DNA of 64,000 nucleotides from Bacteroidales bacterium (lineage in GTDB: Bacteria; Bacteroidota; Bacteroidia; Bacteroidales; JAADJA01). Below are positions 5,512 through 42,775 of the stretch, in pieces (within the stretch, counting starts at the first letter, position 1; each line of letters begins with the position of its first letter). The notes under the pieces were generated by a model. It was not told the DNA's origin. It was given only the letters and a program-made list of their open reading frames with translations, and ran no database searches. The translations under genes were made by a program, and so were the position numbers. The DNA lies in assembly GCA_016783885.1 (NCBI GenBank), contig JADHVR010000002.1:3628-67627 (forward strand), read 5' to 3'.

Positions 5512-5527
5512 TTTGGAGGGATTTGTT

Positions 5528-6985: not shown

Positions 6986-7001
6986 TAAATAGTTAATTAT
7001 C

Positions 7002-8912: not shown

Positions 8913-8926
8913 CTAACGCTACTAAC

Positions 8927-10690: not shown

Positions 10691-10708
10691 CTCTAAACAC
10701 ATAAAAAT

Positions 10709-12082
10709 ATGAAAAAATTATTTTTAACTGTAACAGCTTTATTATGTGCGCTTATTTTGTATACCCAACCCCCACAAGCCTTCAAATACCAGGCAGTGGT
10801 GCGGGACAACTCAGGTGAAATTCTGCAAAACCAGGCAGTAGGTATCCGAATAAGCATTCATGATATTACATCGGGAGGAACCATTATTTATCAAGAAACT
10901 TTTAACGAAACAACAAACCAGTTTGGACTGGTGAATCTGGATATCGGGACTGGTGTTCCAACTATCGGGACATTTGCCAGTATCGACTGGTCTGCCAATT
11001 CAAAATTCATTGAAACAGAGGTCGATCCTTCCGGTGGGTCAACGTATGTTTCAGTAGGGATTTCAGAATTACAATCGGTTCCATATGCCCTTTACTCCGA
11101 CCGCTCGAAAGACGCACCATGGGAAAATTCGGGTAACGATATTTATTATGACAACGGTAATGTAGGTATTGGAACTTCTAGCCCGGTTTATAAACTGCAG
11201 GTGGCTGATCCTACCATAGGAGGTTATGTAGAATCCGGTGTCAGTACCGATGATGCTGCTGGTGCAATTGCTGCTTATTCAAGTACATTTCCTGCTCCTT
11301 TTACACATTTTGCCGGTAGAGTCAGTCTCTGGTCCAGTGCATTTACAGCAACAGGACTGGACCTCCGGGCAGATGGTAGTTCGAGTGATATTCGTTTCTA
11401 CTCGGGAGGATTATTTCCGGTAAATGAAAGAATGAGGATCACTTCGGCAGGTAATGTGGGTATTGGGATTACTTATCCCTCATCCAAATGTCACATTAGG
11501 CAAAGTAGTAATGAAATTCTTCGTCTGGAATCAGAATCTCTGAATGGTTGGACATCATTTTATAATTCAAATGGATATATTGGCTATATAGGTACATATA
11601 GTGGAGATTTTGATTTGGATGTCGGGACGGGTTCATCAAATATTAATGGAAAATTAAATTTGGTAATCAGGGGCATTCCAAGGATAATAATTAATGAGAT
11701 TGGCAATGTGGGTATCGGAACTGCTGACCTTGCTTCAGGGTATTTACTTTCAGTTGATGGTAAGGTTGCTTGTGAGGAGGTTTTGGTTGAATATTCAGGT
11801 TCCTGGCCTGATTATGTTTTTAAAGAAGGATACAATTTGCCAAAAATAGCTGAACTCGAAGATTACATTCAATCAACCGGGCATCTACCTGACATGCCTT
11901 CTGCAAGAGATGTGGAAGAAAATGGGTTCCAACTGGCTGATATGCAGAAACGCCTTTTGGTAAAAGTGGAAGAACTAACCCTGTATACCATTGAACAGGA
12001 TAAACTAATTAAGAAGTTGAGTCAGGAAATCGATCAGCTTAATAAAGAAGTTATCAGGATTAATTCAAAGGATATTCATTAA
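10709..12082 (+). CDS. Fibre-like secreted protein, paralog P4 (conserved N-module; tip class III, WPDYVF...HLPDMPSA + coiled coil)
   Basis: 457 aa. N-module nt 10709-11110. Shares the block SNEILRLESESLNGWTSFYNSNGYIGYIGTYSGDFDLDVGTG..GKLNLV with P1 and P2. C-terminus VACEEVLVEYSGSWPDYVFKEGYNLPKIAELEDYIQSTGHLPDMPSARDVEENGFQLADMQKRLLVKVEELTLYTIEQ. Confidence 0.85.
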   Translation: MKKLFLTVTALLCALILYTQPPQAFKYQAVVRDNSGEILQNQAVGIRISIHDITSGGTIIYQETFNETTNQFGLVNLDIGTGVPTIGTFASIDWSANSKFIETEVDPSGGSTYVSVGISELQSVPYALYSDRSKDAPWENSGNDIYYDNGNVGIGTSSPVYKLQVADPTIGGYVESGVSTDDAAGAIAAYSSTFPAPFTHFAGRVSLWSSAFTATGLDLRADGSSSDIRFYSGGLFPVNERMRITSAGNVGIGITYPSSKCHIRQSSNEILRLESESLNGWTSFYNSNGYIGYIGTYSGDFDLDVGTGSSNINGKLNLVIRGIPRIIINEIGNVGIGTADLASGYLLSVDGKVACEEVLVEYSGSWPDYVFKEGYNLPKIAELEDYIQSTGHLPDMPSARDVEENGFQLADMQKRLLVKVEELTLYTIEQDKLIKKLSQEIDQLNKEVIRINSKDIH

Positions 12083-12115
12083 ACCCGGTGTTTCTCACCA
12101 CAATATCTTATTGAT

Positions 12116-14671
12116 ATGAAAAAGATAATTATTTCACTGCTGATATTAATCACTTCATCCGGGTTTTTACTCCTGGGGCAGAAATCTTCTTATGATATTT
12201 GGCTTAATTCTGAAACCGATGATTTTGAAAGCATCCGGCAAAACACTGAAGCTTATTTCGAAGGAAAATACAAGGGAAGGGGATCAGGGTATAAACAATG
12301 GAAACGTTGGGAATATTTGAACGAACGCAGGCTTTCTCCCGACGGAAAGGTCACTAACCACACATTATTGAATTGGTTAGCCTATCAGGAATACCTTGAT
12401 CAAAATCCTCAATACAAAAAGCCTGACCCAACAGATGTAGCCAACGGGTTCTGGCAATTTCTTGCACCTACGAGTTACATAAATGGTAATGGTTGGAATC
12501 CCGGTATTGGAAGGGTCAATTGTATTGCTTTTCATCCAACCGATCCATATACATTTTATATAGGCACTCCTTCGGGTGGAATATGGAAAACCTCTGAAGA
12601 AGGTGCTAACTGGACGAGCCTTTGCAATGGAATTCCCAGTATTGGTGTTTCCGGTATTGTTGTGAATCCTGCAAATCCGGATATAATTTATATCCTCACA
12701 GGCGATGGTGATGGAGGTAACACCTTTTCCATTGGAGTCTTAAAATCAATTGATGGCGGGATCTCATGGTCTGCAACAGGCCTTACGTTTGATAAAGAGG
12801 ACAAAAAAGTAGGCTATAAACTAAAAATGCACCCCACAAATTATAATATATTGTTTGCTACAACAACTGATGGTACTTATAAAACTACCGACGCAGGTGT
12901 AACATGGACTGAAGTCCATAACTGGTTGTTTTATGATATTGAATTCAAACCCGGAAATCCGTCTATCATGTATGGTTCTACAGGTTGGGGATTTTTCAGA
13001 TCAACTGATACAGGTGACACATGGACTGAAGTTACCGCTGGAGTTCCGACCAATGCATGGCGAATAGAGATCGGTGTATCACCTAATAACCCCACTTCCG
13101 TATATTTAGTTTGCGGGCCGGCTTTTGGAGATTATACTTTTGTTGGTCTTTACCGTTCATACGATAACGGGCAAAGCTTTTCTCTTATATCCGATTCGCC
13201 CAATATCCTTGGCTATGAAACTGACGGTAACGACAGTCTCCACCAGACAATGTATGACCTGGCCATAACAGTTTCAAGGACTGATTATTCAAAAATTATG
13301 GTAGGGGGGATCAATACTTGGGTATCAGATGATTATGGCAGTAACTGGACCATCACCTCCCACTGGTATGATGATAATAATCCAATCGGTTATACACATG
13401 CAGATATTCATGCATTGGAAATAAATCCCCTCAACAACCATTTGTATTGTGGTAGTGATGGCGGTATTTATAAGTCAACCGATTTCGGAAATAACTGGAC
13501 CGATCTGACTCCGGGTATTTCTAACACTCAATTTTATCGCATTGCCGGTTATGAGCCCGATGAATACCTGATTATTGGCGGCACCCAGGATAATGGCTCC
13601 AATAAATGGACAGGAGGGACATACTTCAGACACATTTTAGGTGCCGATGGTATGGATTGTATGATTGATCATACTAATCCCGATATTATGTATTACTGTG
13701 CCCAGAATGGCGGTCTTCATAAATCATACAACGGGGGTATTAATGCAACGAACATTATACCTGATACAGCTGCAATAGGTTCATGGATAACCCCCATCAT
13801 TATGAATCCTGTAGATCCCTTAATTATCTATGGTGGTTATAATGATGTTTATAAAAGCTATGACGGAGGAGAAAACTGGGTTAACCTTGGCGTAGATGGA
13901 CGTGAGGCAATGGCAATTGGCACGGATAATCCCGACAGGGTTTATGCATCGGACGGATATGATTTCAATAGCTCTCATGATGGTGGATATACCTGGTTCA
14001 ATTACAATGATAATGGCTTACCCGCTAATAGAATCAGTTTTATAGCTGTTAATCCGAATAATTCAAAGGATGTATTTGTAACAATTGGCGGATTTAACGA
14101 TGGTAAGAAAGTGTATCGTTCTACTAGTAATGGAGAATCCTTTACAAATATCACAGGCTCCCTGCCGAATGTCATCGTAAACTGCATAGCTTACGAAAAT
14201 ACAGGAGCGGACCCTGATGGTGCCGTTTATATCGGAACGGATGTAGGTGTATTCTATCGTAACAATAGCCTGGGAGATTGGATCCCTTACTCAAACTGGT
14301 TGCCCACTGTACCTGTTTTCGATCTGGAAATCAACGAAGCCAATGATTTGATTACTGCAGGAACATTTGGCCGGGGATTGTGGAGATCACCAACATATTC
14401 TCCTTGTTACGTTTCACGGACCTTAGGAGGAACAGGCCTCATCGGCTATAGTTATTACCAGGCAGAAGATTGGATTAATTCTACAAGGATCTATAACCAG
14501 GGAATTGGTCAGGAAGGTTATTATAAAGCAGGCAATACCATTCGGCTTCAGCCTGGTTTTCATGTGACCAACGGATCAAAATTCAAGGCTTTCCTGGGTC
14601 CGTGTGGGGCAGGTATTCCTACTGACCCAGGAACGAAAAATACAGAATCTGATAAGAAGAACATAGAGTGA
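12116..14671 (+). CDS. BNR/Asp-box repeat beta-propeller protein (sortilin/VPS10- or GH74-like architecture), secreted
   Basis: 851 aa with a signal peptide. Many Asp-box-like motifs: KTSEEGANWT, KSIDGGISWS, KTTDAGVTWT, RSTDTGDTWT, RSYDNGQSFS, SDDYGSNWT, KSTDFGNNWT, KSYDGGENWV, SSHDGGYTWF, RSTSNGESFT. C-terminal tail ...KAGNTIRLQPGFHVTNGSKFKAFLGPC resembles a C-terminal motif common in Bacteroidota surface proteins. Confidence 0.8.
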   Translation: MKKIIISLLILITSSGFLLLGQKSSYDIWLNSETDDFESIRQNTEAYFEGKYKGRGSGYKQWKRWEYLNERRLSPDGKVTNHTLLNWLAYQEYLDQNPQYKKPDPTDVANGFWQFLAPTSYINGNGWNPGIGRVNCIAFHPTDPYTFYIGTPSGGIWKTSEEGANWTSLCNGIPSIGVSGIVVNPANPDIIYILTGDGDGGNTFSIGVLKSIDGGISWSATGLTFDKEDKKVGYKLKMHPTNYNILFATTTDGTYKTTDAGVTWTEVHNWLFYDIEFKPGNPSIMYGSTGWGFFRSTDTGDTWTEVTAGVPTNAWRIEIGVSPNNPTSVYLVCGPAFGDYTFVGLYRSYDNGQSFSLISDSPNILGYETDGNDSLHQTMYDLAITVSRTDYSKIMVGGINTWVSDDYGSNWTITSHWYDDNNPIGYTHADIHALEINPLNNHLYCGSDGGIYKSTDFGNNWTDLTPGISNTQFYRIAGYEPDEYLIIGGTQDNGSNKWTGGTYFRHILGADGMDCMIDHTNPDIMYYCAQNGGLHKSYNGGINATNIIPDTAAIGSWITPIIMNPVDPLIIYGGYNDVYKSYDGGENWVNLGVDGREAMAIGTDNPDRVYASDGYDFNSSHDGGYTWFNYNDNGLPANRISFIAVNPNNSKDVFVTIGGFNDGKKVYRSTSNGESFTNITGSLPNVIVNCIAYENTGADPDGAVYIGTDVGVFYRNNSLGDWIPYSNWLPTVPVFDLEINEANDLITAGTFGRGLWRSPTYSPCYVSRTLGGTGLIGYSYYQAEDWINSTRIYNQGIGQEGYYKAGNTIRLQPGFHVTNGSKFKAFLGPCGAGIPTDPGTKNTESDKKNIE

Positions 14672-14703
14672 TCATTATTTAAAATTCAATAAAAAACAAA
14701 GGT

Positions 14704-16794
14704 ATGAAACGAAACATTTTAATTTTACTAATCGTCCTTTGTGGAACAATGGCGGTAATGGCACAGCCCCCCCAAGCCTTCAAATACCAGGCAGTGGTGC
14801 GCGATAACTCAGGTGAAATCCTGCAAAACCACGCAGTAGGTGTCCGAATCAGCATCCATGATGTAACAGCAGGAGGAACTATTGCTTACCAGGAAACTTT
14901 TTCTGAAACAACCAATAATTTCGGATTGGTAAACCTGGAAATCGGAACAGGCACACCAACCATCGGAACATTCACAGGAATTGACTGGAGCAGTAATTCT
15001 AAATTCATCGAAACAGAAATCGATCCGGAAGGTGGAATAGCATATGTTTCAATGGGGACATCGGAATTGCTATCAGTACCTTTTGCTTTGTACTCCGATC
15101 GTTCAAAGGATGTTGTATGGGAAAAGTCAGGAAATGAAATTTTCTATAATGATGGCAAAGTTGGTATTGGAACCTCTGCTCCGGCCGGTTCACTTGATGT
15201 CAGAGGCTCCGGTACTGATGAAGGAGTTGTGATTAATCTCGGTAATTCCGATCTTTCTCATAAATTAACATTATTTGGAGGCAAGGAGACCGATCCAAAC
15301 CCATTTCTGATGTGGAAGGATGGCGATCCCTTCAGGTTTGTTACAGATGCAGCTGGTTTTTCAGAAAAGATGAGAATAACATCGGACGGCAATGTGGGTA
15401 TAGGTACAACAACCCCTGGAGCCATCCTTGAAGTGGCAGGACATATCTGGCAAACAGGAACAGGGATGTCTGTTTTTTTAGGTGAAGGTGCCGGTACTCT
15501 TGATGACCTATCTGACAATGAAAATATTTTTATCGGCTCTAATGCAGGAAGCGCTAATACTTCCGGTTGGCGTAACACCGCAATTGGAGCCTCTTCAATT
15601 CGTTATACCACTACTGGAAATCGCAATACTGCAATCGGCGCTTATTCACTTTGCACTAACACAACCGGAAACTTCAATAGTGCAATCGGATATAAATCCT
15701 TGTTCTCGAACACAGCAGGAAATTCCAATACGGGGACGGGTTACTTATCACTTAATTCTAACACATTAGGCTCTGGTAATACAGCACATGGTTATTTAGC
15801 GCTTTATTCAAACACAATTGGTATCTCTAACGTAGCCATTGGAAACAGTGCACTATTTCATAATACCAATAGAAGTAATCTGGTTGCAGTTGGTGATTCG
15901 GCACTCTTTAATAATGGTATTGGAGTAGTTTATACTTACGAGGCAAATCAAAACACTGCTATTGGTTCCAAAGCTCTTTTTTCCAACACAAGAGGGGTTC
16001 ATCAAACAGCGAGTGGGTTTGAATCGCTTTACTACAATACTACTGGAGAGTATAACACTGCACACGGCTCTAATTCGCTTTATTACAATACTGCGGGAGA
16101 CTATAATACAGCCACCGGGTTTCAATCACTTTACTCGAATACAACAGGAGAGTATAACGCAGCACACGGTGGTTCTGCGCTCATATCTAATACGACAGGA
16201 GACTACAATACTGCCTGTGGTTTTTGGTCGCTTCCCTATTTCACAATTGGAGATTTTAACACCGCAGTTGGATATTTTGCATCGGTTTCTGGAGGGATTT
16301 CTACCAGTAATTCAACTGGAATTGGCTATAATGCACAACCCCAATACACCAACAGAATTATGCTTGGAAATACTGCTATTACTTGGATAGGTGGTCATTC
16401 TTCATGGTACAATACATCAGATACCAGAGTAAAGAATAATGTTAAGGAAGATGTGCAAGGCCTGGATTTTATTTTGAAACTACGCCCTGTAACATACCAT
16501 TTTGATAAAGATAAAATGGATCAATTAATGGGTATGGTGGATGCAAGTGATTATGCTGAAAAATATGATAAAGAAAAAATAAAACAAAGCGGATTCCTGG
16601 CACAGGAAGTAGAACAGGCAGCTATAGATTCAGGATATGATTTTAGTGGGGTATGTAAACCCACAGATCATATTAAATATTATTCTTTGGCCTATGCTGA
16701 GTTTGTAGTTCCCTTGGTAAAGGCAATGCAGGAACAGCAAGTTCTTATTGAAGAACTAAAATCACGCATTGAAAAATTGGAAAGGAATAAATAA
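14704..16794 (+). CDS. Fibre-like secreted protein, paralog P5 (conserved N-module; long 17-residue NTA-x-G/NTTG repeat shaft; tip class II, S74 chaperone-type)
   Basis: 696 aa. N-module nt 14704-15108. About 13 copies of NTAIGxxSLxxNTTGxx (nt ~15574-16285). C-terminal TSDTRVKNNVKEDVQGLDFILKLRPVTYHFDKDK...SGFLAQEVEQAAIDSGYDFSGV...YYSLAYAEFVVPLVKAMQEQQ (nt 16417-16791) is nearly the same as in P2. Confidence 0.85.
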   Translation: MKRNILILLIVLCGTMAVMAQPPQAFKYQAVVRDNSGEILQNHAVGVRISIHDVTAGGTIAYQETFSETTNNFGLVNLEIGTGTPTIGTFTGIDWSSNSKFIETEIDPEGGIAYVSMGTSELLSVPFALYSDRSKDVVWEKSGNEIFYNDGKVGIGTSAPAGSLDVRGSGTDEGVVINLGNSDLSHKLTLFGGKETDPNPFLMWKDGDPFRFVTDAAGFSEKMRITSDGNVGIGTTTPGAILEVAGHIWQTGTGMSVFLGEGAGTLDDLSDNENIFIGSNAGSANTSGWRNTAIGASSIRYTTTGNRNTAIGAYSLCTNTTGNFNSAIGYKSLFSNTAGNSNTGTGYLSLNSNTLGSGNTAHGYLALYSNTIGISNVAIGNSALFHNTNRSNLVAVGDSALFNNGIGVVYTYEANQNTAIGSKALFSNTRGVHQTASGFESLYYNTTGEYNTAHGSNSLYYNTAGDYNTATGFQSLYSNTTGEYNAAHGGSALISNTTGDYNTACGFWSLPYFTIGDFNTAVGYFASVSGGISTSNSTGIGYNAQPQYTNRIMLGNTAITWIGGHSSWYNTSDTRVKNNVKEDVQGLDFILKLRPVTYHFDKDKMDQLMGMVDASDYAEKYDKEKIKQSGFLAQEVEQAAIDSGYDFSGVCKPTDHIKYYSLAYAEFVVPLVKAMQEQQVLIEELKSRIEKLERNK

Positions 16795-16823
16795 ATTGAA
16801 TTAGAAATATAAAAAATAATAAT

Positions 16824-18644
16824 ATGAAAACATTATCAGTTTTAATAGCTGTTTTAAGCTGCTCAATTCTTTTGAATGCACAACCACCACAAGCCTTCAA
16901 ATACCAGGCTGTAGTCAGGGATGTTGCAGGAGAAGTCATTTCAAATCAATCTGTGGATATAAGAATCAGTATTCACAATGAAACACCTGGAGGCACAATC
17001 ATCTACCAGGAAACTTTTTCAGGTACAACCAACCAATTTGGCCTCATTTCTTTAAACATTGGTTTAGGAACACCGGTAATAGGCACATTTGGTAGTATTA
17101 ACTGGAGTGCTGATTCAAAATTCATAAAAGTAGAAATTTATAATTCTGCAGGAGGCGGCTATGTTGCATTAGGAACGTCTGAATTATTTTCTGTTCCCTA
17201 TGCATTGTATTCCGACCGGTCGGCTGATGGATTTTGGGAATTGAACAACTCCGATATTTACTACAATTCCGGTAGTGTTGCAATTGGTTCAACCTATCCC
17301 ATTGCAAAGTTACATGTTGATGGAGGGTCAGGAGCAGGAATTTATGGTTTTAGTTCCAATAGTTATGGAATTGTTGGTAAAAGTTGGGCAGACAATTACC
17401 CTGGTGTTCAGGGAGAAGCACTGTCCGCAAACAGTTATGGAATATATAGTCAAAATCAATATGGTGGCACAGCTTTTCGTTCATGGAGTGATGGTGGGTT
17501 GGCCGGCCATTTTGAAGGTGATGTTTATATGGAAGATAATTTAGGTGTTGGGACATCTAGCCCAAGCTATCCGTTACATGTTAAAAGCAGCCATGATGAC
17601 TGGTTGGTAGGAATCCATAACCAGAGTTGGTCGTATAGTGCCAATGGACTTGTAACTCGTTCCGAAGGTGGAGATCCATTTCTTGCCCAAAGCTCCTATG
17701 GAGATCTTCTTATTGTAAAGAATAATGGTAGGGTAGGCATTGGAACCTCTACTCCGGATGCCGTGCTGCATGTTGATGATCATATTCGAGTAGGAGAAGA
17801 TCCTTCCTATTCTACAGTGTATGGTGAACTTTTTCACTACGGTGGAGGAACAGGATTTAAAATTAACGCACACGCAGGAGGAGGAAGTTGGGCTGATATG
17901 CATTTGCAGACGAATGGATCCACGAAAGTGTTTATTGAGAGCAATGGACAGGTTGGGATTGGAACGGATAGCCCTTATAATCGCCTGCAAGTTGTGGCTT
18001 CCGGATCTGAAAACGGATTCCAGAGTTATAGCCCGAGTGGAACTGCTGTTTATGGATTATCTGGTTCCAGTTATGGAGTATTTGGCCAAAGTACAAGCTA
18101 TTATGCAGGTTATTTTTCAGGACCTGTACATGTAACCGGCAACCTTTCAAAAGGAAGCGGCTCGTTTGTTATTGACCATCCGCTTGATCCTGAAAATAAG
18201 CTGCTCCGCCATAATTTTGTGGAATCTCCGGAGAACCTGTTGATTTATCGGGGAAAAGCTGAACTAGATGAAAAAGGGGAAGCTATGGTAGAGTTATCTG
18301 ATTACTTTAAAGCCCTTACCAAAGAAGATGAAGCCTCTATTCATCTCACTCCTGTTGGCAGACCATTTTTAACCGGGGCTGAATGGAACAGCGATTTTTC
18401 AGCAATTATCATTTATGGAGAAACAAACCGGGCAGTTTTCTGGGAAGTTTTGGCGGATCGTGATGATCCGGTAATTCACGAACTTGGCCGTCCTGTTGAA
18501 GAAGAAAAGGGAGGAAAAAATACACTTTGCGAAAAGGGTAAATTGCTTTATCCCGAAGCTTATGGTTATCCTGAATCAGCAGGAAGAGATTATGACGAAA
18601 TGATAAAAATGAAAGAGCAAATAAACAGAAATACAACTAAGTAA
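16824..18644 (+). CDS. Fibre-like secreted protein, paralog P6 (more diverged N-module; tip class IV, FVIDHPLDPENK...VESPE domain)
   Basis: 606 aa. N-module nt 16824-17222 (QPPQAFKYQAVVRDVAGEVISNQ). Shares RVGEDPSYSTVYGELFHYGGGTGFKINAHAGGGSWADMHLQTNGSTKVFIESNGQVGIGT with P1. C-terminus GSFVIDHPLDPENKLLRHNFVESPENLLIYRGKAELDEKGEAMVELSDYFKAL. Confidence 0.85.
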   Translation: MKTLSVLIAVLSCSILLNAQPPQAFKYQAVVRDVAGEVISNQSVDIRISIHNETPGGTIIYQETFSGTTNQFGLISLNIGLGTPVIGTFGSINWSADSKFIKVEIYNSAGGGYVALGTSELFSVPYALYSDRSADGFWELNNSDIYYNSGSVAIGSTYPIAKLHVDGGSGAGIYGFSSNSYGIVGKSWADNYPGVQGEALSANSYGIYSQNQYGGTAFRSWSDGGLAGHFEGDVYMEDNLGVGTSSPSYPLHVKSSHDDWLVGIHNQSWSYSANGLVTRSEGGDPFLAQSSYGDLLIVKNNGRVGIGTSTPDAVLHVDDHIRVGEDPSYSTVYGELFHYGGGTGFKINAHAGGGSWADMHLQTNGSTKVFIESNGQVGIGTDSPYNRLQVVASGSENGFQSYSPSGTAVYGLSGSSYGVFGQSTSYYAGYFSGPVHVTGNLSKGSGSFVIDHPLDPENKLLRHNFVESPENLLIYRGKAELDEKGEAMVELSDYFKALTKEDEASIHLTPVGRPFLTGAEWNSDFSAIIIYGETNRAVFWEVLADRDDPVIHELGRPVEEEKGGKNTLCEKGKLLYPEAYGYPESAGRDYDEMIKMKEQINRNTTK

Positions 18645-18747
18645 TATTATATATGTATGTCTCAAAAAATTTATTTGACTTTTTAAATATAAATGCTTAT
18701 TTTTACATCTTGAAATTTTTGACTTAAACATATAAAACTATAAAAAA

Positions 18748-19644
18748 ATGAAAAAAATCAGCACACTTTTAGTAGGATTGGCTATTTCCTTAACCATAAC
18801 AGCCCAATCAGTTTCTCCGGAAGTAGTGGCTTCGGCAGGAGATTATTTTGAAGGAACAAATGCAAGCCTCAGTTGGACACTGGGAGAAATTGCAACAGAA
18901 ACCTATTCAAACGGGAACATTATTTTAACACAAGGTTTTCAACAACCGGTATCTGTAACGATTCACGGTGTTGATCTTGACCTGCTCGTTTTTCTCGAAG
19001 GCCCCTATTCAGGCTCTCAAATGACTACAGGACTTAATGCCGGAAATCAGATTCCATTATCTCAACCTTATAACGCACCTCCGTGGAATTACACAGGAAC
19101 AGAAAGCGTAGGATCTATTCCAAACACTGATGTAGTTGACTGGGTTTTAATAGAACTTCGCGATGCTGCAAATCCTGGTGCTGCTGATCCTTCCACTACA
19201 ATTGCAACACAAGCGGCTTTTATATTAGATAACGGTTCTGTTGTGGGGCTCAATGGTTCATCGGTTCTGCAATTCCCAGCAGCTTCTTTTTCACAAAACC
19301 TTTATGCTATTGTTTGGCACAGGAATCATTTGGGAATTTTATCGGCAAATGGTATTACCGAATCAGGTGGAGTTTACGATTATAATTTTTCTACGGCAAT
19401 TACCCAGGTTTACAATGGCGGTGCGGGATATAAAGAAATTGCAACAAATGTTTACGGCATGGTGGGAGGAGATTCAAATGCTGACGGACATATTAACGCT
19501 GCCGATAAAATACTGTGGACTAACGATGCCGGAACGAAAGGCTATAAAGCCACCGACAACAATATGGATGTGCAGGTAAGCAACCAGGATAAGAACGATA
19601 CATGGGCTGAAAACGGTACATACTCAAGTCAGGTACCGGAGTAG
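18748..19644 (+). CDS. Small secreted protein: short N-terminal segment plus the shared ~230-aa C-terminal module
   Basis: 298 aa. Signal peptide ...TITA|QSV. LSWTLGEIATE...ILTQGFQQP segment. Module from [64 protein letters not shown] ... VWHRNHLGI ... GDSNADGHINAADKILW ... SNQDKNDTW ... SQVPE-TAG (nt ~18970-19641). Confidence 0.85.
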   Translation: MKKISTLLVGLAISLTITAQSVSPEVVASAGDYFEGTNASLSWTLGEIATETYSNGNIILTQGFQQPVSVTIHGVDLDLLVFLEGPYSGSQMTTGLNAGNQIPLSQPYNAPPWNYTGTESVGSIPNTDVVDWVLIELRDAANPGAADPSTTIATQAAFILDNGSVVGLNGSSVLQFPAASFSQNLYAIVWHRNHLGILSANGITESGGVYDYNFSTAITQVYNGGAGYKEIATNVYGMVGGDSNADGHINAADKILWTNDAGTKGYKATDNNMDVQVSNQDKNDTWAENGTYSSQVPE

Positions 19645-19649
19645 GATTA

Positions 19650-19687
19650 TTCGTCTGACCACTGCCGGTGCGAAGTGGTCTGACGAA
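19650..19687 (+). repeat. Intergenic repeat module X (perfect 14-bp-stem hairpin TTCGTCTGACCACT-n10-AGTGGTCTGACGAA), copy B
   Basis: Starts 6 nt after the TAG stop. The preceding GGATTA is also conserved. Related copies at 29391-29440 (-) and a partial copy at 33119-33152 (-). A lone 3' arm recurs at 19822-19836. Confidence 0.85.
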
Positions 19688-19701
19688 CACCAGAAAACTC
19701 T

Positions 19702-19729
19702 TCTTCGCAAATACCAAAACTTCGGTATC
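19702..19729 (+). repeat. Intergenic repeat module W (TCTTCGCAAATACCAAAACTTCGGTATC), copy B
   Basis: Matches the reverse complement of 32959-32986 (TCTTCGCAAATACTGAAACTTCGGTATC) with 2 mismatches. Contains a small ATACC...GGTAT hairpin. Confidence 0.75.
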
Positions 19730-19736
19730 TAAGTTT

Positions 19737-19764
19737 ACCCCGTTCGATTGAGCGGGGTTTTTTA
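19737..19764 (+). terminator. Rho-independent terminator ending the fibre / C-terminal-module gene block
   Basis: ACCCCG-ttcgattgag-CGGGGT stem-loop followed by a T-run (gcggggtttttt). Confidence 0.7.
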
Positions 19765-19837
19765 GCAGACCTGATTCCGCTTAATCGTCTAACAACTGAT
19801 CTTAGCGAATGCTTTACGCACAGTGGTCTGACGAATA

Positions 19838-19919
19838 CCAAAGACCTTCCAGAGTTTAAGGCAAGGGAATTTCAGGGCGGAATCCCGAAAGTTTTCGGGA
19901 TGGAAGAGTCTGATGGGGA
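19838..19919 (+). repeat. Intergenic repeat module Y, copy B (carries an extra internal hairpin ATCCCGAAA-gt-TTTCGGGAT)
   Basis: CCAAAGACCTTCCAGAGTTTAAGGCAAGGGAATTTCAGGGCGGAATCCCGAAAGTTTTCGGGATGGAAGAGTCTGATGGGGA. Lies 77 nt upstream of the TPR kinase start at 19996, the same spacing as copy A to the kinase at 593. Confidence 0.8.
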
Positions 19920-19995
19920 TAGGGTTTTAGATTTTAGATTAATTCTCCCTTTAGCTTTACCTAAAATACTTATTTTTGTATTAAAGTATATTCCT

Positions 19996-22122
19996 ATGCA
20001 ATTCCTTTTGAAATACATCACAAAACCATTACTGTTTTTGATAATTATCTTTTTTTTACTTTTAAAAAATTCTTTCGGGCAATCATTACACAAAACCGAC
20101 AGTTTACTGACCGAATTGAACAAAACTGTTCATGATACAACTAAAATCAAAATCCTGTTTGAATTAGGCAATCAGTTTTTAAGCGGGCCCTCCGATTCGC
20201 TTCTGTTATATTACCGAACTGCCTTAAAAATTGCAGAAAAAAATATCTCAAGCATAAAGCATAAACAAGAAAGGAAAAACATTAAAACAGTTGAAACCTA
20301 TAAAAGACAAACTGCACGGGCGATAATAGAAATAGGAATTGAGTACTTTTTTCGTAGCGATTATTCTAAAGCGTTGAATTATTTTTTTAAAGCCCTTGCT
20401 ATCTGTGAAGAATTAAATGACATATCATTAATATCCGAATGTTACAGCGAAATAGGTATTGTTTACAAAAACCAGGGGAAATATGATCTGGCGCTTGAAT
20501 ATAATGAAAAAGCGTTATCCGGTGCAAAGCAGACAGGAGACATTTCCTGGGTTGCTGTTTGCTATGCTAATAATGGTACAATATACCTGAAAAAGGGGTA
20601 CTTTACCTTAGCTTTGGAATATTATTTAAAAGCCCTTAAAACCTTTGAAGAATTAGGGCATGAACGGAGAATATGTGTCTGTTATCTAAATATTGGTAAA
20701 ATATACAGTGAACAACACGATTTTAATAAAGCGCTTGAATATTACAATAAAGCTCTTCAAATCGCTTATAAAACAAAAGATAAAGTAAGTGAAACGGAGA
20801 GTTATCTGAACATCGGTAAAGTATATTCAGGTATGAAAGAGTATTCATTGGCAAGAAGTTACTTTAATCAATCAATCAATTTATATGAAGAGTCAGGCTA
20901 CCGCCACGAAATGGATGAATGTTATAAAAACATCGGCTTGACATACAAAATGGAAAAGGACTATGACAAAGCGACAGAGTATTATTATAAAGCCCTGCAA
21001 ATATCACGTCAGGAAGTTGACAAACCGGGCATGGCTGAATCACTTGGTTATATTGCTGATGTGTTTTTCCTTAAACATAATTACCCAAAGGCGCTGGAGA
21101 TGGCAAAGCAAAGTCTTGAAATTGCAAAAGAAACGGAGAACTTACAGGCACTTAAGAATGCTTATGAATTTTTATCGGAAATTTACGAAGGGCAGAATAA
21201 TACCGGAAAAGCCTTGCATTATTACAAACTTTATTCGGATATTAAAGATAGCCTTTTCAGCGAAGGAAAATATAAAGCAATCAGGGAGATTGAAACAAAA
21301 TTTGAAACTGAAAAGAAAGAACAGCAACTTGCCTTGCTGACTGAAAAAAACGAGGTACAGATGCTGAAGATCAGCCGGAGAAACCAACTCATTCTTGCCT
21401 TAGTTATATTTTTTACGCTGATAGTGCTGATGGTTTATTTGTTTTATCGTAATAAAAGGCTACAAGCAAAACACAAAACCATACAATTAGAGCAGCAGCT
21501 ACTCCGGTCGCAGATGAATCCGCACTTTATCTTCAATTCACTTATTGCCATTCAAAGTTATATTTATAAAAAAGACCTTATAGAGGCAGGGGATTACCTT
21601 GCTAAATTCGCCAATCTTGTAAGATTAATCCTGGAAAATTCAAGATCTGAATTTATTCTTTTTGAGAAAGAGGTCAATACCCTTGAGCTTTATTTTGAGT
21701 TACAGTTGCTGCGATTCGAAAATAAATTCACTTATACGATTGAAATAGATAAAAATCTTGAAACAGGAAATATCAGCATTCCTCCAATGCTTTCACAACC
21801 TATTATCGAGAATGCTATTGAACATGGATTAAGGCATAAAAAACAAGGAGGGTTTATTCATATCAGATTCGACAAAAAGGATGATTCAATTTTATTTAAA
21901 GTTGAAGATAACGGTGTAGGCAGGCTCAAAGCATCGGAATTTAAAAAACTAAAAAATAATAAATCCATTGCAATATCAATTATAAAAGAGAGGTTGGCGA
22001 TTTTAAGTAAAAAATTCAAGAAAAAGTTTAATATGGAGATTGCTGATCTTAAAGATAATACGGGAACACCCAGCGGCACAAAGGTTACTTTTAGTATGCC
22101 ATATATACTAAAAAAGGGATAA
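19996..22122 (+). CDS. TPR-array sensor histidine kinase, LytS/YehU-type (His_kinase + GHKL ATPase), no adjacent response regulator
   Basis: The track ORF starts at 19900 inside repeat Y. ATG at 19996 (MQFLLKYITKPLLFLIIIFF) gives a normal signal/TM N-terminus. About 8 TPR-like repeats, a coiled coil and a TM segment (LILALVIFFTLIVLMVYLFY). LRSQMNPHFIFNSLIAIQSYI (LytS-type H-box region). IPPMLSQPIIENAIEHG and EDNGVG ATPase motifs. Confidence 0.85.
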   Translation: MQFLLKYITKPLLFLIIIFFLLLKNSFGQSLHKTDSLLTELNKTVHDTTKIKILFELGNQFLSGPSDSLLLYYRTALKIAEKNISSIKHKQERKNIKTVETYKRQTARAIIEIGIEYFFRSDYSKALNYFFKALAICEELNDISLISECYSEIGIVYKNQGKYDLALEYNEKALSGAKQTGDISWVAVCYANNGTIYLKKGYFTLALEYYLKALKTFEELGHERRICVCYLNIGKIYSEQHDFNKALEYYNKALQIAYKTKDKVSETESYLNIGKVYSGMKEYSLARSYFNQSINLYEESGYRHEMDECYKNIGLTYKMEKDYDKATEYYYKALQISRQEVDKPGMAESLGYIADVFFLKHNYPKALEMAKQSLEIAKETENLQALKNAYEFLSEIYEGQNNTGKALHYYKLYSDIKDSLFSEGKYKAIREIETKFETEKKEQQLALLTEKNEVQMLKISRRNQLILALVIFFTLIVLMVYLFYRNKRLQAKHKTIQLEQQLLRSQMNPHFIFNSLIAIQSYIYKKDLIEAGDYLAKFANLVRLILENSRSEFILFEKEVNTLELYFELQLLRFENKFTYTIEIDKNLETGNISIPPMLSQPIIENAIEHGLRHKKQGGFIHIRFDKKDDSILFKVEDNGVGRLKASEFKKLKNNKSIAISIIKERLAILSKKFKKKFNMEIADLKDNTGTPSGTKVTFSMPYILKKG

Positions 22123-23315: not shown

Positions 23316-26300
23316 TCAGTATATTCGATATCTGGGAAGGGTAAACTTAAATGTACTGCCGACTCCTAATTCGCTTTCAGCCCATATTTTACCGGTATTC
23401 CTTTCCACAAATTCTTTACAAAGTATCAAACCTAAGCCGGAACCCTGTTCATTAGCAGTACCAATGGTTTTGAACTGGTCGTCAATCCTGAACAACTTTT
23501 TCAGGTTTTTTTCTTCGATACCTATTCCCATATCAGCTATACACACCTCAACAGTATTATTAGTATTTCCGGCTGTAATTTCAATTTTGCCTTCTGGTTT
23601 TGTAAATTTTATAGCATTCGAAAGCAAATTTCTGATAACGGCTTTAATCATATTTTCATCCGCAAAAGCTATTGTATTATACGGGACAGTGGTATGAACT
23701 TTTATCCCTTTATTGATTGCACTTGATTTTAGTACAGTAATATTTTCATTTACAAGCACACTTATATCAATAATTTCGGGATTATAATCGATGTTGCCGG
23801 TTTGTGTTCTTGACCATTCAAGTAAATTTTGTAATAACTTGAACGTACTTTCGGAAGCTTCACATATATTTTTAATAAAAATTTTACGTTGTTTTTCATC
23901 TAAATTATCATAAGCTTCATAAAGTAAATTTGAAAACCCCATAATGGCATTAAAAGGATTTTTAAGATCATGGGCTATGATGGAAAAGAATTTATCTTTC
24001 ATAGCATTGGCTTCTCTTAGCTTTTCTCCCGATTCAATCAGTATGGATTCCGTTTCCTTGCGCTCCGTAACATCAATAGCAACAACAAGAAGAGCCGGTT
24101 TTCCATAGTAATCAACTATAGAACCCAGCGTTTCTATCCATCTCACTTTTCCATCTTTCCTGATGTATTTGTATTCAGTTCTTGCCGGTATCTTTTCTCC
24201 TTCCTGTCCCCTTTTAATATTATTTAAAGCACGTTCATAATCATCAGGATGTATTATTAACTTAAGCCAGTTTTTTTCTTTTACCGATAATTCCTTAAAG
24301 CTGTATTGTGTCATCTCTTCCATCCTTGAATTTGCAAAAATCAGCTTTTCATCCTGAATAATAAGCATTGCCTGTAAAGAATTCTCGACCAAAATCCGGT
24401 ACTTTAATTCGGATTGTATCCTTGATTTTTCTATCTTTTTTGAGTAAGTAACATCTTCAATATTAATAATCAGACTTGTTATATTTCCTTTTTTGTTTTT
24501 AACAGGTGCTATTATATACTTCAAAAAAACATCTTTTCCCCACTTCGATTTATACTCTTTTTCATTATACATTATATTGCCGGTTTCAATGCAATTTAAT
24601 ATATCATCCGAAAGTCCGACTTTTTTGAGTGGTGGATATTCAAGGCAATTTATCTCTTTGGTTTCCTCTTCGCCAGGTGAGCCTAAAATTTGAAGCATTT
24701 TTTTATTTACTTCAATGATATTCCCCTTCTTGTTTATGTATATTATACCGGTTGGTGAGTATCCTATCAGATTTTTATATTTTGTTTCGCTTTTACTTAA
24801 TTCGTCTAATGCTTCTGATAATTTTTCCTTTTGCCCGGTTATCTCTTTATTAATCTCCTTTAGTTTTTTATTGGCTTTTGTTTTTGACTTAATATCATAA
24901 TAAACAAGTATTCCAAAAATTGCCATTAAGATAAAAATAATAACAAGATAGGTTCTTTGGGTTCTAACTTCCTTTTCTTTCTTCTGGTATTCTTGTATCA
25001 TTAATTCCTTCTCCAATTCCCTCTCCCTGTCTGTTTTATCAATCTCATACATAGCTTGTATTTCGGCAAGATTTCTGTGAAATTGTTTGTTGTATATAGT
25101 ATCTTTCTGCAAAGTGTAAAACCTAAAATATTCTAAGGCTTTAGCATAATTCTTTTTCTGTAAATATATTTTATAAAATAGTTCATAATTGATAAGAAGT
25201 ATTGACGATAGTTTAAGGGAATCGGCTATTTGAAGGCTTTTATAATTGAATTCAATTGCTTTTTTAAAATTACCCACCTTAAAATATACCATTCCGATGG
25301 AGTTATATGATTGTGCTATCCCAAGTTTGTTACCAAGTTTTTTTTCAATCTCAAGAGATTCAATTAAATAATCTAACGCTTTTTGATGATTGTCCAGATC
25401 AGAATAACTTTCCCCAATGTTGTTCAACGCCTGTGCAATTCCCCTTGTCTCCCTGAATTCTTCATATATCTCAAGGGCTTTATTATAATAACCGATAGCT
25501 ATTTCATTTTGATCCCAATCGCTGTAAACAATACCAATATTATTATAAGATCCGGCAATTCCCTTCCTGTTTCCTAACTCCTCTTCAATATTAAGAGACT
25601 TTTGATAATATTCTAATGCTTTTTCTTTGTTTCCCCATTCATAATTAACTATTCCAATATTATTCAGGACATGTGCAATACCCTGCTTGTTTTGCAACTC
25701 TTCAACCAATTGCAAGGACTTCATATAATAACTTAATGCTTTCTCGTAGCTTCCCAGGTCAAAAAAAACAATCCCGATGCTATTATATATATCTGCAATT
25801 TTTTGCTTATTGCCTAATAATTCCTCAATATCGAAGGCATTTTTGAAATAAATAAGCGCCGATTGAAAATCACCAGCCGATTGAAAAACATTGCCTAAAT
25901 AAAAAAACCGGTTTGCTATTTTGGATTTACGGTCAAGTTTTTCTTCTATATTAACCGACCTTAACAGATATTCTTGTGCCTTTTTATATTCGCCTTTACC
26001 TTCGTAAGTTAATCCAATCGAATTTAAAATTTCCGAAATAACGGTATCATTTCCTTTTGTTTCTTCGATTTCCAGAGATTTGAGGTAGGCATCAATAGCT
26101 GAATCATATTCGTAAAGAAAGTAATTTGCTTCACCTAAATTGTATAGCGCCCCGGATTGAGCTTCCCGGTTATTTAAAATCCTTGCTAATTCAAGGGCGT
26201 TATTTGCATAAATCTTCGATTTTTCAGGGTTAACCGAAAGATACTCTTTTGCCAATAAGTTTAAAAGATTTACTTTATCACCAACCGGAGAACTTCCCAA

Positions 26301-26438
26301 TTGCTTTTCGATCCGGGTTATATTAATGGCTTTATCATCAGTTAACGTATCGGAAAAGGAATAAAATACCTGTATAAAGAAAAACAGCAAAACGGCTATT
26401 CCTTTTAAGGGTAATCTTATGTTCTTAATCCTCCTCAA
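23316..26438 (-). CDS. TPR-array / PAS-PAS sensor histidine kinase (classical HisKA + HATPase_c)
   Basis: 1040 aa. N-terminal hydrophobic segment, about 9 TPR-like repeats, a TM segment (YLVIIFILMAIFGILVYY) and two PAS-like regions. H-box FFSIIAHDLKNPFNAI. ATPase motifs NLLSNAIKFT, DMGIGI, GSGLGLILCKEFVERNTGKIW. Confidence 0.9.
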   Translation of the reverse strand: MRRIKNIRLPLKGIAVLLFFFIQVFYSFSDTLTDDKAINITRIEKQLGSSPVGDKVNLLNLLAKEYLSVNPEKSKIYANNALELARILNNREAQSGALYNLGEANYFLYEYDSAIDAYLKSLEIEETKGNDTVISEILNSIGLTYEGKGEYKKAQEYLLRSVNIEEKLDRKSKIANRFFYLGNVFQSAGDFQSALIYFKNAFDIEELLGNKQKIADIYNSIGIVFFDLGSYEKALSYYMKSLQLVEELQNKQGIAHVLNNIGIVNYEWGNKEKALEYYQKSLNIEEELGNRKGIAGSYNNIGIVYSDWDQNEIAIGYYNKALEIYEEFRETRGIAQALNNIGESYSDLDNHQKALDYLIESLEIEKKLGNKLGIAQSYNSIGMVYFKVGNFKKAIEFNYKSLQIADSLKLSSILLINYELFYKIYLQKKNYAKALEYFRFYTLQKDTIYNKQFHRNLAEIQAMYEIDKTDRERELEKELMIQEYQKKEKEVRTQRTYLVIIFILMAIFGILVYYDIKSKTKANKKLKEINKEITGQKEKLSEALDELSKSETKYKNLIGYSPTGIIYINKKGNIIEVNKKMLQILGSPGEEETKEINCLEYPPLKKVGLSDDILNCIETGNIMYNEKEYKSKWGKDVFLKYIIAPVKNKKGNITSLIINIEDVTYSKKIEKSRIQSELKYRILVENSLQAMLIIQDEKLIFANSRMEEMTQYSFKELSVKEKNWLKLIIHPDDYERALNNIKRGQEGEKIPARTEYKYIRKDGKVRWIETLGSIVDYYGKPALLVVAIDVTERKETESILIESGEKLREANAMKDKFFSIIAHDLKNPFNAIMGFSNLLYEAYDNLDEKQRKIFIKNICEASESTFKLLQNLLEWSRTQTGNIDYNPEIIDISVLVNENITVLKSSAINKGIKVHTTVPYNTIAFADENMIKAVIRNLLSNAIKFTKPEGKIEITAGNTNNTVEVCIADMGIGIEEKNLKKLFRIDDQFKTIGTANEQGSGLGLILCKEFVERNTGKIWAESELGVGSTFKFTLPRYRIY

Positions 26439-27480: not shown

Positions 27481-29229
27481 ATGAATCCTAAAATGAAAAA
27501 TTTATTCTTGCTATCGTGCATATTGATTGCAGTTCAGGTTTTTTCACAAGAAAGCGATCCGGCTTTAAACAGTCAAATCGGATATTACGAATATTTTGAT
27601 TGTGTTAAAAATGATTATGTAAAATCGTATACTTTCAGTGATTCTATTCCGCCGTCATTTGCAATCAGTCATACGGTAAATGGAGACGTAACAGTACATG
27701 TTGTTTCTGATGAAGATTTGTTTGCAGGCTGGGTAGATGAAAAAGATGTCTGGTCGGTTAGTAACTTTGATTATTGGTGGTTAAATACACGTCTGACAAA
27801 AGATTGTCAGAATAATATTTATGCAGCGGTAAGATTATACGAATATTCAAACCCGAGTGGTAATTTTGATATGTATAAATTGAATAACAATGGGAATATT
27901 CTTGAAGAGCATGATGATTGGATCGGACCCGGAGGCAATACTTTAATTATAAACAACCCTGACGAAAATATTTACATCGGGCAACCCACTCAAGATAAAG
28001 AAGGCGCTGTTGATAGTAACAATATAACTTATATATTTTCGGGTAGCGGTAGTATTTCGTTTACTAAGATAGATGCAGACGGAACAGTACTGATAAATGG
28101 CCAGACTGTTATTACCGGTGCTAATTCATGGACTAACGAGATCAGAACAGCAATTGATACGGATAATAAGATATATCTCGTGTGGTCAAATGATATGCAC
28201 GACATCACTTATGCTTACTCGGTTGATGGCGGAGATACATGGTCCGACAAGATTTCATTATATTTAAATGCTTCTCAACAACTAAACAAGCCCCAGATTT
28301 GCTGCGATATCAATAATAATGTTCATATAATCTGGCAGCAATGGACAGGGTCTTCCAACATACTAACCTATATGAAATTATTACCCGACGGTGCTATATC
28401 TGTTAATAATAGTTCTTTGACCCAGAGCAACAACCAGGTATGGTCGCCGAGAATGGATATTGATGAAGAAAATAATATTCATATTGTCTGGGCTAAAAGC
28501 AGTCAACAGATCACATCTGCTTACTATACAAAAATTAATGGGAATTTAGACAGTAACGGACAATCATTGAGCGATGATGAATTATCTATTATCCAGGAAC
28601 AGCCTTTTTTATCCGACGAAACCATCAGATATCCAAAGTGTGCTGTTGATGAATATGAAAATGTGCATACTATTTATGAAAAAGGTGAATATGGTTGTAA
28701 CCATCCAAAATCGGTAAAATATAAAAAAATGAATTCTATTCCATTGCTGAGAATTGAATGTCCGAATGATTCTATAATTTTTGTAGAAATGACAGGAGCC
28801 GGTACCCAATGGGAAGGAACTTTTACTCCTCCTGAAAACGGCACTTATAATATCAGAATTTCAGGGTCGGATATAGATGGTAACACAGGCGTTGATTATT
28901 ATCAGTTTGAATATATCAGTACTGATTTCCGGGAAAATGAATTATTATCAGATAATAACGAATTTCTCATAAATTATCCCAATCCGTTTAGTTTCGAAAC
29001 AACTATTGAATTTAATTTAACTGAAGCAAGTAATATTAAGCTCAGAATTTACAGTATAAACGGTGAATTGGTAAAAACACTTTTTTCAGGCGCTTTACAA
29101 TCCGGTATTCATACATTTATTTGGGAAACAAGTGATAATAACAACAATCCTGTTCCCTGCGGAATATATTTTTATAAATTAGAAAAAGATAATTCCAATA
29201 AAATCGGGAAGATGGTTTTTCTTGAATGA
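27481..29229 (+). CDS. Secreted protein with T9SS type-A C-terminal sorting domain (one clear Asp-box; propeller-like body)
   Basis: 582 aa. Signal peptide ..VFS|QES. Asp-box SVDGGDTWSD. C-terminal ~85 aa INYPNPFSFETTIEFNLTEASNIKLRIYSINGELVKTLF...GIYFYKLEKDNSNKIGKMVFLE matches Por/T9SS CTD features. Confidence 0.8.
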   Translation: MNPKMKNLFLLSCILIAVQVFSQESDPALNSQIGYYEYFDCVKNDYVKSYTFSDSIPPSFAISHTVNGDVTVHVVSDEDLFAGWVDEKDVWSVSNFDYWWLNTRLTKDCQNNIYAAVRLYEYSNPSGNFDMYKLNNNGNILEEHDDWIGPGGNTLIINNPDENIYIGQPTQDKEGAVDSNNITYIFSGSGSISFTKIDADGTVLINGQTVITGANSWTNEIRTAIDTDNKIYLVWSNDMHDITYAYSVDGGDTWSDKISLYLNASQQLNKPQICCDINNNVHIIWQQWTGSSNILTYMKLLPDGAISVNNSSLTQSNNQVWSPRMDIDEENNIHIVWAKSSQQITSAYYTKINGNLDSNGQSLSDDELSIIQEQPFLSDETIRYPKCAVDEYENVHTIYEKGEYGCNHPKSVKYKKMNSIPLLRIECPNDSIIFVEMTGAGTQWEGTFTPPENGTYNIRISGSDIDGNTGVDYYQFEYISTDFRENELLSDNNEFLINYPNPFSFETTIEFNLTEASNIKLRIYSINGELVKTLFSGALQSGIHTFIWETSDNNNNPVPCGIYFYKLEKDNSNKIGKMVFLE

Positions 29230-42765: not shown

Positions 42766-42775
42766 TTTTTACTAT

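Follow-up and report, generated by a model that had tools for sequence, protein, structure and literature searches.

The stretch of Bacteroidales DNA analyzed here (the window: 64,000 nucleotides of contig JADHVR010000002.1, positions 3,628 to 67,627, forward strand) holds four copies of one module of 229 amino acids (aa), closing four different proteins: a product truncated by the window edge, a 298-aa “mini” protein, a GH57 protein and a C1 peptidase (Table 1). A first-pass annotation, made from the letters of the window, had pointed at this shared C-terminal architecture, and both an alignment and a profile over the six-frame translation bear out all four copies with the motifs it listed. 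Pairwise identity is 46-52% over 229 aa, and the copies have in common LxLK(V/I)(F/Y)LEG(P/A)(Y/F), PLxQPYN..PWNYx, (W/R)H(R/K)NHL, a pair of Asp/Asn loops and VPE or VPD at the terminus. A four-copy profile run against the six-frame translation of the window recovered just these four (E 1e-73 to 1e-128) and no fifth copy, the next best match having E 2.8; the pattern is therefore far beyond chance. Pfam and NCBIfam scans of the four proteins returned nothing over the module at E≤1.

The three complete proteins start with signal-peptide-like sequences, none of which contains a lipobox, and lipoprotein export was rejected on this ground. C-terminal signals of the exosortase or sortase type (such as PEP-CTERM and LPXTG) were likewise rejected, as neither a hydrophobic helix nor a basic tail follows VPE/VPD.

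Table 1 Module copies, their parts and associated genes in the window (nucleotide positions; ORF, open reading frame)
Feature	Position	Strand	Remarks
Copy A	3-431	+	C-terminal 143 aa of module; gene cut by window edge; profile E 2e-73
Copy A, dockerin-like part	240-431	+	Ca-loop-like segments 258-293 and 345-380
Copy A, terminus		+	FVPE; stop codon 432-434
Paralogous secreted “fibre” genes	3862-5508, 7002-8909, 8927-10687, 10709-12079, 14704-16791, 16824-18641	+	
Mini protein, 298 aa	18748-19644	+	signal peptide, head of ~48 aa (SPEVVASAGDYF...LTQGFQQP), then copy B
Copy B	18955-19641	+	within 298-aa ORF 18748-19644
Copy B, beta-sandwich (X-module-like) half	18955-19452	+	
Copy B, dockerin-like half	19453-19641	+	C-terminus SQVPE
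Copy B, loop 1	19471-19506	+	DSNADGHINAAD, followed by K-x-x-x-W
Copy B, loop 2	19555-19590	+	DNNMDVQVSNQD, followed by K-x-x-x-W
GH57-module protein	29446-32880	-	1144 aa, secreted; Pfam Glyco_hydro_57 and 2x Ig_N_CWD1; carries copy C
Copy C	29449-30135	-	profile E 6e-124; ends GQVPD
Copy C, beta-sandwich	29641-30135	-	
Copy C, dockerin-like part	29449-29640	-	loops 29587-29622 and 29500-29535
C1 peptidase-module protein	33155-35185	-	676 aa, secreted; Pfam Peptidase_C1 and Lectin_like; carries copy D
Copy D	33158-33844	-	profile E 8e-128; ends SQVPD; copy used for AlphaFold
Copy D, beta-sandwich	33350-33844	-	
Copy D, dockerin-like part	33158-33349	-	loops 33296-33331 and 33209-33244

Predicted fold and likeness to dockerins

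The module alone, in the form of copy D, was modelled with AlphaFold2 using an alignment of 96 diverse sequences. The resulting model is confident, with a predicted local distance difference test score (pLDDT) of 97.3 and a predicted template modelling score (pTM) of 0.93, and forms one compact unit. Strands lie between residues 5 and 168, and two helices (181-191 and 210-220) directly follow two 12-residue loops, yielding a predicted layout of a ~165-aa beta-sandwich and then two D-x-N-x-D-x(3)-N-x-x-D loop-helix repeats. A first AlphaFold model of the full 298-aa protein, based on 58 close homologues, reached pLDDT 75, with values below 55 in the dockerin-like part, and Foldseek with this model was uninformative (best E 0.23).

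When the copy D model was compared with the PDB via Foldseek, X-module-dockerin (XDoc) dyads of type II cohesin-dockerin complexes filled places one to five, with a sixth lower in the list (4u3s_B, 4fl4_L, 2b59_B, 4wi0_B, 5k39_B and 5g5d_B; E 8e-3 to 0.2, probability 0.84-1.00). The top five span E 8e-3 to 4e-2 at probability 0.85-1.00, including 4u3s_B (E 8e-3, probability 1.00), 4fl4_L (E 1.1e-2, probability 1.00) and 2b59_B (E 2.7e-2, probability 0.98, template modelling (TM) score 0.63 on the target). Behind the dyads, the list continues with generic sandwiches at low probability, and the viral structures searched by Foldseek returned generic sandwiches only.

At the sequence level, a whole-module profile found nothing significant among PDB sequences (best E 0.61). 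A profile of the last 70 aa matched the dockerin of Clostridium cellulolyticum Cel5A (2vn5_B, E 0.0016), aligned over both loops, and dockerins make up at least 17 of its 31 weak PDB matches. Pfam Dockerin_1 recognizes 12 of 42 isolated C-terminal 70-aa segments, at best with E 0.0021 and below the gathering score. The duplicated unit has the consensus GDGNADGxINxxDKxxVWxxQAG and GDFNLDxQVNNxDKNDxWxPNxG; its loop patterns, D-x-N-x-D-G-x-I-N-x-x-D and D-x-N-x-D-x-Q-V-N-x-x-D, are common to the four copies and the family consensus, and all 42 sequences compared have Asp at loop positions 1 and 12. The module shows the segment pattern of dockerins, two tandem segments of ~22 residues that each combine a 12-residue EF-hand-like loop with a predicted helix, and its predicted fold has the hallmark of type II XDoc, a beta-sandwich located just N-terminal to the dockerin and packed with it as one unit. 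The dockerin-like loops suspected in the first-pass annotation thus extend to a dockerin-like sequence over the last ~60 aa and, in the predicted fold, to a resemblance of the whole module to XDoc dyads. We conclude that the module is probably an XDoc-like dyad whose X-like sandwich is unusually large. Its likeness to such dyads is statistically marginal but consistent over three independent lines, namely loop motifs with their duplication, profile matches and fold.

The extreme C-terminus had been read as an invariant VPE/VPD and a possible processing site. The invariance does not hold across the family: only Q-V-P is conserved, the last residue being D, E, N, Q, I, Y, S or T, and some proteins stop at QVP. 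Support for a processing site was not found; in the model the Q-V-P tail is ordered (pLDDT ~97), a sign that it may be a structural clasp.

Family, passengers and exchange with the T9SS C-terminal domain

A first profile search, run over about 5.8 billion proteins, yielded 1,184 matches. Nearly all of the best 120 are called “hypothetical proteins”, have ~297 aa and come from metagenome-assembled genomes (MAGs) of Bacteroidales or Bacteroidetes, and in none of the 120 does a Pfam domain cover the module. When 1.84 billion representatives of clusters at 50% identity were scanned exhaustively with HMMER, 13,641 clusters matched at E≤1e-3, 10,418 at E≤1e-10 and 3,542 at E≤1e-30. When one genome per GTDB species was searched, 265 relatives were found. 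Of the best 80, nearly all reside in MAGs of uncultured Bacteroidales, and these MAGs hold many copies each, two of them at least 12. The family is hence large, and no Pfam or NCBIfam model covers the module. The window sequence occurs in sequencing runs from metagenomes of estuaries, marine sediments and cold seeps, and a look for RNA-seq runs that cover the genes found none listed. Some module loci (L055, JAFGML010000039.1; L001/L042/L061, JAADJA01...) were found in bins labelled “Thermoplasmatota archaeon” and “Chlorobiota bacterium”; as the family is otherwise Bacteroidales-wide, these contigs are probably mis-binned or mislabelled.

Architectures were counted in the best 150 cluster representatives. 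The module is C-terminal in 135 of them, and in 107 the protein ends within three residues of the module, usually with Q-V-P-[D/E/N/Q]. A further 28 (e.g., P0129, P0132 and P0138) carry an extra 9-23 residues that close again with [F/Y]-K-C-[Q/M]-V-P-[E/K]. In the remaining 15 the module is internal, mostly followed by one or two Fib_succ_major (FISUMP)/Lcl_C domains; such tailed representatives (P0123, P0232, P0262 and ~12 others, ~10%) end in VRC[L/I]K[D/N]. Two internal-module proteins, P0227 and P0125, continue with further sequence and a genuine Por_Secre_tail, and four proteins (P0121-P0124) contain two to five tandem copies. Passengers, identified in 65 representatives, comprise Laminin_G_3, LTD, GEVED, Cohesin, PKD, beta-helix, MAM, NosD, FG-GAP, Big_2, PAD_porph, CotH and glucoamylase domains, an extracellular repertoire resembling type IX secretion system (T9SS) cargo. 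A crude signal-peptide test was positive in 83 of 116 Met-initiated representatives, and the negative ones look like N-terminally truncated gene calls. The description of the module as a C-terminal tag accordingly stands for ~90% of representatives, on extracellular-type passengers, and fails where the module is internal, in tandem or beside a genuine T9SS C-terminal domain (CTD).

T9SS CTDs are required for T9SS-dependent export and are removed by PorU. The first-pass annotation had set the module apart from such domains, naming two canonical type A CTDs elsewhere in the window. One of these is clear (27481-29226; PF18962 E 2e-7, TIGR04183 31 bits vs a cutoff of 23), and the other, in the protein at 51341-55774, is sub-threshold (20.8 bits vs 23). 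The same Pfam and NCBIfam scans that detect the CTD of 27481-29226 give no CTD match over the module at E≤1, in line with a module that is distinct from the CTD and unnamed. Nor does it have the form of a CTD, a 70-100-aa Ig-like sandwich found once per protein at the extreme C-terminus: it measures 229 aa, has a helical C-terminal half, is internal in 15 of 150 representatives, occurs in up to five tandem copies and stands beside Por_Secre_tail in P0227 and P0125.

The two kinds of C-terminus nevertheless trade places. When the best 120 homologues of the passenger of the C1 peptidase are sorted by their ends, the module closes 21, including 20 full-length proteins of 663-707 aa with 68-100% passenger identity. 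Most of the other 99 end in Por_Secre_tail; 85 are 520-559 aa long and share 64-72% identity. The module and the T9SS CTD thus swap position on orthologous C1 peptidases, and they do so likewise on the four-cohesin scaffoldins described below. For the proposal that the module is a sorting or anchoring tag, its occupancy of the CTD position on orthologous passengers counts in favor, and a role in export (sorting) is hypothetical. PorV/PorP-like shuttle genes were searched for beside module genes and none was found.

Cohesin proteins and gene neighborhoods

Cohesin-like partners, suspected in the first-pass annotation, have cohesin-bearing candidates in related genomes and gene clusters. Pfam cohesins lie N-terminal to the module in 6 of the best 150 representatives: P0163 combines a signal peptide, four cohesins and a PKD-like domain with the module, P0205 a beta-helix and three cohesins with the module, P0227 has four cohesins, the module, further sequence and Por_Secre_tail, and P0068, P0167 and P0236 have one cohesin each plus the module. 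A protein search with a cohesin profile gave seven matches, all truncated gene calls, which served as entry points to loci L081-L083. These belong to three MAGs, at least two of which also hold module genes elsewhere, and show a gene for four cohesins plus the module, frameshifted in those assemblies. In MAG ABC1.42 (L083), an orthologue of the GH57-module gene of the window lies directly downstream of the four-cohesin scaffoldin-like gene.

A metagenome scan with an alignment of seven cohesin sequences revealed 30 loci with a conserved ORF of ~1115-1160 aa containing four tandem cohesins. This ORF ends in the module in 8-9 loci (L084-L087, L093, L094, L104 and L107), and in a T9SS type A CTD in about 10 (L088, L090-L092, L096-L100 and L105); Pfam confirms Por_Secre_tail in L088 and L098. 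The architecture of a scaffoldin, with an XDoc-like module at the C-terminus of a multi-cohesin protein, is hence found in P0163, P0205 and the module-ended loci just named. In almost every locus with upstream sequence, the four-cohesin ORF is directly preceded by a gene whose product, 1720-2430 aa long, combines Kelch and beta-helix domains with a canonical Dockerin_1 (31.5 bits, exceeding the cutoff), one cohesin-like domain and Por_Secre_tail. A dockerin beside a cohesin-like domain within one protein is unusual. The pair of Kelch/beta-helix and four-cohesin genes recurs whichever C-terminus the scaffoldin has (L083 2815-7986, L084 4740-9926, L088 4768-9924 and ~20 others). Downstream of the module-type scaffoldin in L084 come a Peptidase_C10-CUB-module gene and then another module gene.

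The mini architecture of ~297 aa, represented in the window by the 298-aa protein, is the commonest among the closest database relatives. Its gene is the final one of a cluster with six paralogous fibre genes (3862-18641, + strand). The N-terminal ~125 aa of the fibre proteins (QPPQAFKYQAVVRD...) are nearly identical across all six and match NCBIfam Bdello_MAT_N, a domain of mosaic adhesive trimer fibres, below threshold (25-38 bits vs a cutoff of 60); two of the six carry the intramolecular chaperone domain Peptidase_S74. As their C-terminal parts differ, the six genes resemble a cassette from which adhesive fibres can be interchanged. Of the loci of ~297-aa module proteins (among L001-L043), 10 of 14 have a same-strand fibre gene within 1.5 kb, whereas this is the case for only 2 of 38 module genes with large passengers. 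This synteny suggests a specific role of the mini protein with its neighboring fibres.

Further features surround these genes. A TPR-LytS-type histidine kinase gene often follows the mini protein in related loci and does so in the window (19900-22122). About 95 nt past the stop of the 298-aa gene, a GC-rich hairpin with a T-run (19737-19758, + strand) resembles a terminator; it is the sole such hairpin in 18500-20000, a number not above shuffled expectation. A sigma-70 promoter scan gave matches equal to shuffled expectation, with a model that does not cover Bacteroidota promoters. The window is unusually dense in large sensor histidine kinases containing TPR or propeller domains (593-3544, 19900-22122, 23316-26438 on the - strand, and 42710-45952) that flank secreted-protein genes; the hybrid kinase at 593-3541 also contains a receiver domain and an AraC helix-turn-helix. 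GCX_COOH, a “3-coathanger stack” (NF045639, 45.9 bits vs a cutoff of 26), ends an 851-aa Sortilin/BNR protein (12116-14668, + strand) and adds a third type of C-terminal domain to the secreted proteins of the window. The protein at 51341-55774 (+ strand) with the sub-threshold CTD has 1478 aa, no Pfam domain and a weakly PorZ-like C-terminus, and the gene after it (55825-56886, + strand) weakly matches PorV and PorP/SprF.

A putative docking system and its alternatives

Cohesin-dockerin assembly is a textbook feature of Firmicutes cellulosomes, and Bacteroidota are thought to display surface enzymes via T9SS CTDs or lipoprotein systems of polysaccharide utilization loci. With moderate confidence, we propose that the module is a divergent XDoc-like dyad that fixes secreted proteins, as a Ca2+-dependent plug, to the cohesins of T9SS-anchored surface proteins. 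A beta-sandwich of ~165 residues would pack on a dockerin-like domain of ~60 residues, built from two duplicated loop-helix segments of the calcium-binding F-hand type, and the unit would serve as a non-covalent plug. Its cargo would range from enzymes exported by Sec (GH57, C1 and C10 peptidases) and adhesin-like proteins up to scaffoldins with several cohesins, attaching to cohesin or cohesin-like domains of surface proteins that would themselves be exported and anchored via their own T9SS type A CTD. The outcome would be a cellulosome-like, general surface-display system in uncultured sediment Bacteroidales, with the module as an alternative to direct anchoring by a T9SS CTD and a layout mirroring the primary and anchoring scaffoldins of cellulosomes. 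Within this proposal, we infer cohesin binding, the partner cohesin, the dependence on calcium, the surface location and the outer-membrane route.

The closest known counterparts are the clostridial XDoc dyads of C. thermocellum CipA (2B59, 4FL4 and 5G5D) and A. cellulolyticus ScaA (4U3S and 4WI0), which share the order and packing of a sandwich followed by a two-helix, two-loop dockerin, and are likewise C-terminal on multi-cohesin scaffoldins; the module is also encoded beside a candidate anchoring protein. They are the best structural matches of the module, yet marginal ones (E ~1e-2, TM 0.4-0.63). Clostridial XDoc occurs in Firmicutes and on scaffoldins, whereas the module occurs in Gram-negative Bacteroidales, on dozens of enzymes and adhesins per genome; its sandwich is larger (~165 vs ~95 aa) and its post-loop helices are shorter, with a conserved D-K-x-x-x-W, and the proposed anchor is a T9SS CTD instead of SLH or sortase. 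Type I dockerins (PF00404, Dockerin_1) share the two duplicated segments of a 12-residue D-x-N-x-D-x-x-x-N-x-x-D loop plus helix and give weak profile matches over both loops. The loop-to-loop spacing of 29 residues is two fewer than in the aligned Cel5A dockerin and, unlike type I dockerins, the module is always fused to a conserved sandwich and ends in a conserved Q-V-P-x. The T9SS type A CTD (PF18962/TIGR04183) shares its C-terminal position and passenger kinds and is interchangeable with it on orthologues, but measures ~80 aa and has no similarity in sequence or fold.

Dockerins have been reported in rumen Bacteroidetes (PMC6487960), and a cellulosome-like cohesin-dockerin system has been inferred for Cloacimonadota MAGs of “Ca. 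Stygibacter”, in which signal-peptide-bearing enzymes (peptidases, GH57 and GH18) have C-terminal dockerins and a scaffoldin of tandem cohesins carries a T9SS-type CTD (Williams et al. 2021, PMC8542988). Like the Bacteroidales in question, Cloacimonadota are Gram-negatives of the FCB group from anoxic water or sediment. Their dockerins are detectable by standard domain models, whereas the module escapes Pfam and NCBIfam, and unlike them it has a large, fixed X-like sandwich and forms a Bacteroidales-wide family of thousands of clusters. Two-tier scaffoldins, ending in a module or a CTD, are not described for Cloacimonadota.

Several observations weigh against the docking proposal. The similarity to dockerins and XDoc is marginal (E 1e-3 to 4e-2, TM 0.4-0.63, root-mean-square deviation 4.7-7.5 Å), no family member reaches the Pfam Dockerin_1 gathering score, and the sandwich is ~70 residues larger than known X-modules. 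It is moreover rich in conserved polar and aromatic residues (LEG, QPY, PWxY, DWVLxELRD and HRNH), a hint at a ligand site of its own. A cohesin was looked for in the window itself and none was found. The candidate partner could be either the four tandem cohesins or the single cohesin-like domain beside the CTD of the upstream protein, and the canonical dockerin of that protein could be the true ligand of the four cohesins. The chief difficulty is one of topology: proteins with the module only take the place of CTD-bearing orthologues although they have, besides a Sec signal, neither CTD nor lipobox, and their arrival at the surface is not accounted for by docking alone.

This lack of a recognizable outer-membrane route for module-only proteins keeps alive an explanation that we consider unlikely overall, in which the module, alone or besides docking, is an outer-membrane export or sorting signal, a new C-terminal class for T9SS or another exporter. 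It would account for the predominantly C-terminal position (135 of 150) with a conserved Q-V-P-x end, for the replacement of Por_Secre_tail on orthologous passengers and scaffoldins, and for T9SS-cargo-type passengers that carry a Sec signal peptide only and otherwise have no known surface route; T9SS CTDs are also known to vary in sequence (types A and B, ChiA-like). The module, however, has no sequence match to TIGR04183, TIGR04131 or PF18962, its 229 aa with a helical C-terminal half are unlike a 70-100-aa Ig-like CTD, and a PorV/PorP-like shuttle gene adjoins no module gene. An export signal also fits poorly with the internal modules that coexist with a genuine Por_Secre_tail in P0227 and P0125, with the two to five tandem copies of P0121-P0124 and with FISUMP domains after the module in ~10% of representatives. 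The same missing route motivates a further reading, to which we give a rather low probability: the module would supply outer-membrane passage either as a third, structurally unrelated CTD class recognized by T9SS or by hitch-hiking on a CTD-bearing carrier. In the latter case it would bind the cohesin or cohesin-like domain of the carrier in the periplasm, and the folded complex would be exported together through T9SS. If true, the cohesin-dockerin pair would be used for secretion besides surface assembly.

The conserved aromatic and polar residues of the sandwich also lend themselves to a glycan- or substrate-binding module, similar to carbohydrate-binding modules (CBMs) or lectins, with structural calcium sites and a role in targeting particles or the cell's own polysaccharide. 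The sandwich half resembles carbohydrate-binding or prealbumin-like sandwiches such as 4iyk, at low probability in the second tier of Foldseek matches, the module is joined to hydrolases and adhesin-like passengers, and in ~10% of representatives it is accompanied by a further putative binding domain (Fib_succ_major/Lcl_C). We nevertheless regard such a function as improbable, as the best structural matches are XDoc dyads and not CBMs, the duplicated loop-helix segments are a dockerin signature, and the link to multi-cohesin proteins and the module at scaffoldin C-termini are predictions of docking. Homotypic association between modules, forming a surface lattice or anchoring fibres without a cohesin, appears very improbable: tandem copies and a ~297-aa, near-module-only protein conserved beside fibre-gene clusters would suit it, but it leaves the cohesin association and the swap with the T9SS CTD unexplained.

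Three elements of these data are new: a fixed 229-aa dyad in thousands of protein clusters, missed by curated domain libraries; its swap with the T9SS CTD on orthologous enzymes and scaffoldins; and a conserved gene pair in which a Kelch/beta-helix protein with dockerin, cohesin-like domain and CTD precedes a four-cohesin scaffoldin. If the family were named and given a model, many “hypothetical” proteins of environmental MAGs would gain an annotated C-terminus, and the swap raises the testable question of how a protein without a CTD crosses the Bacteroidota outer membrane. Under the docking proposal, sediment Bacteroidales would apparently be given a two-tier, T9SS-anchored cohesin-dockerin display, whose cargo would not be cellulases but proteases, amylase-like enzymes and numerous adhesin-type domains.

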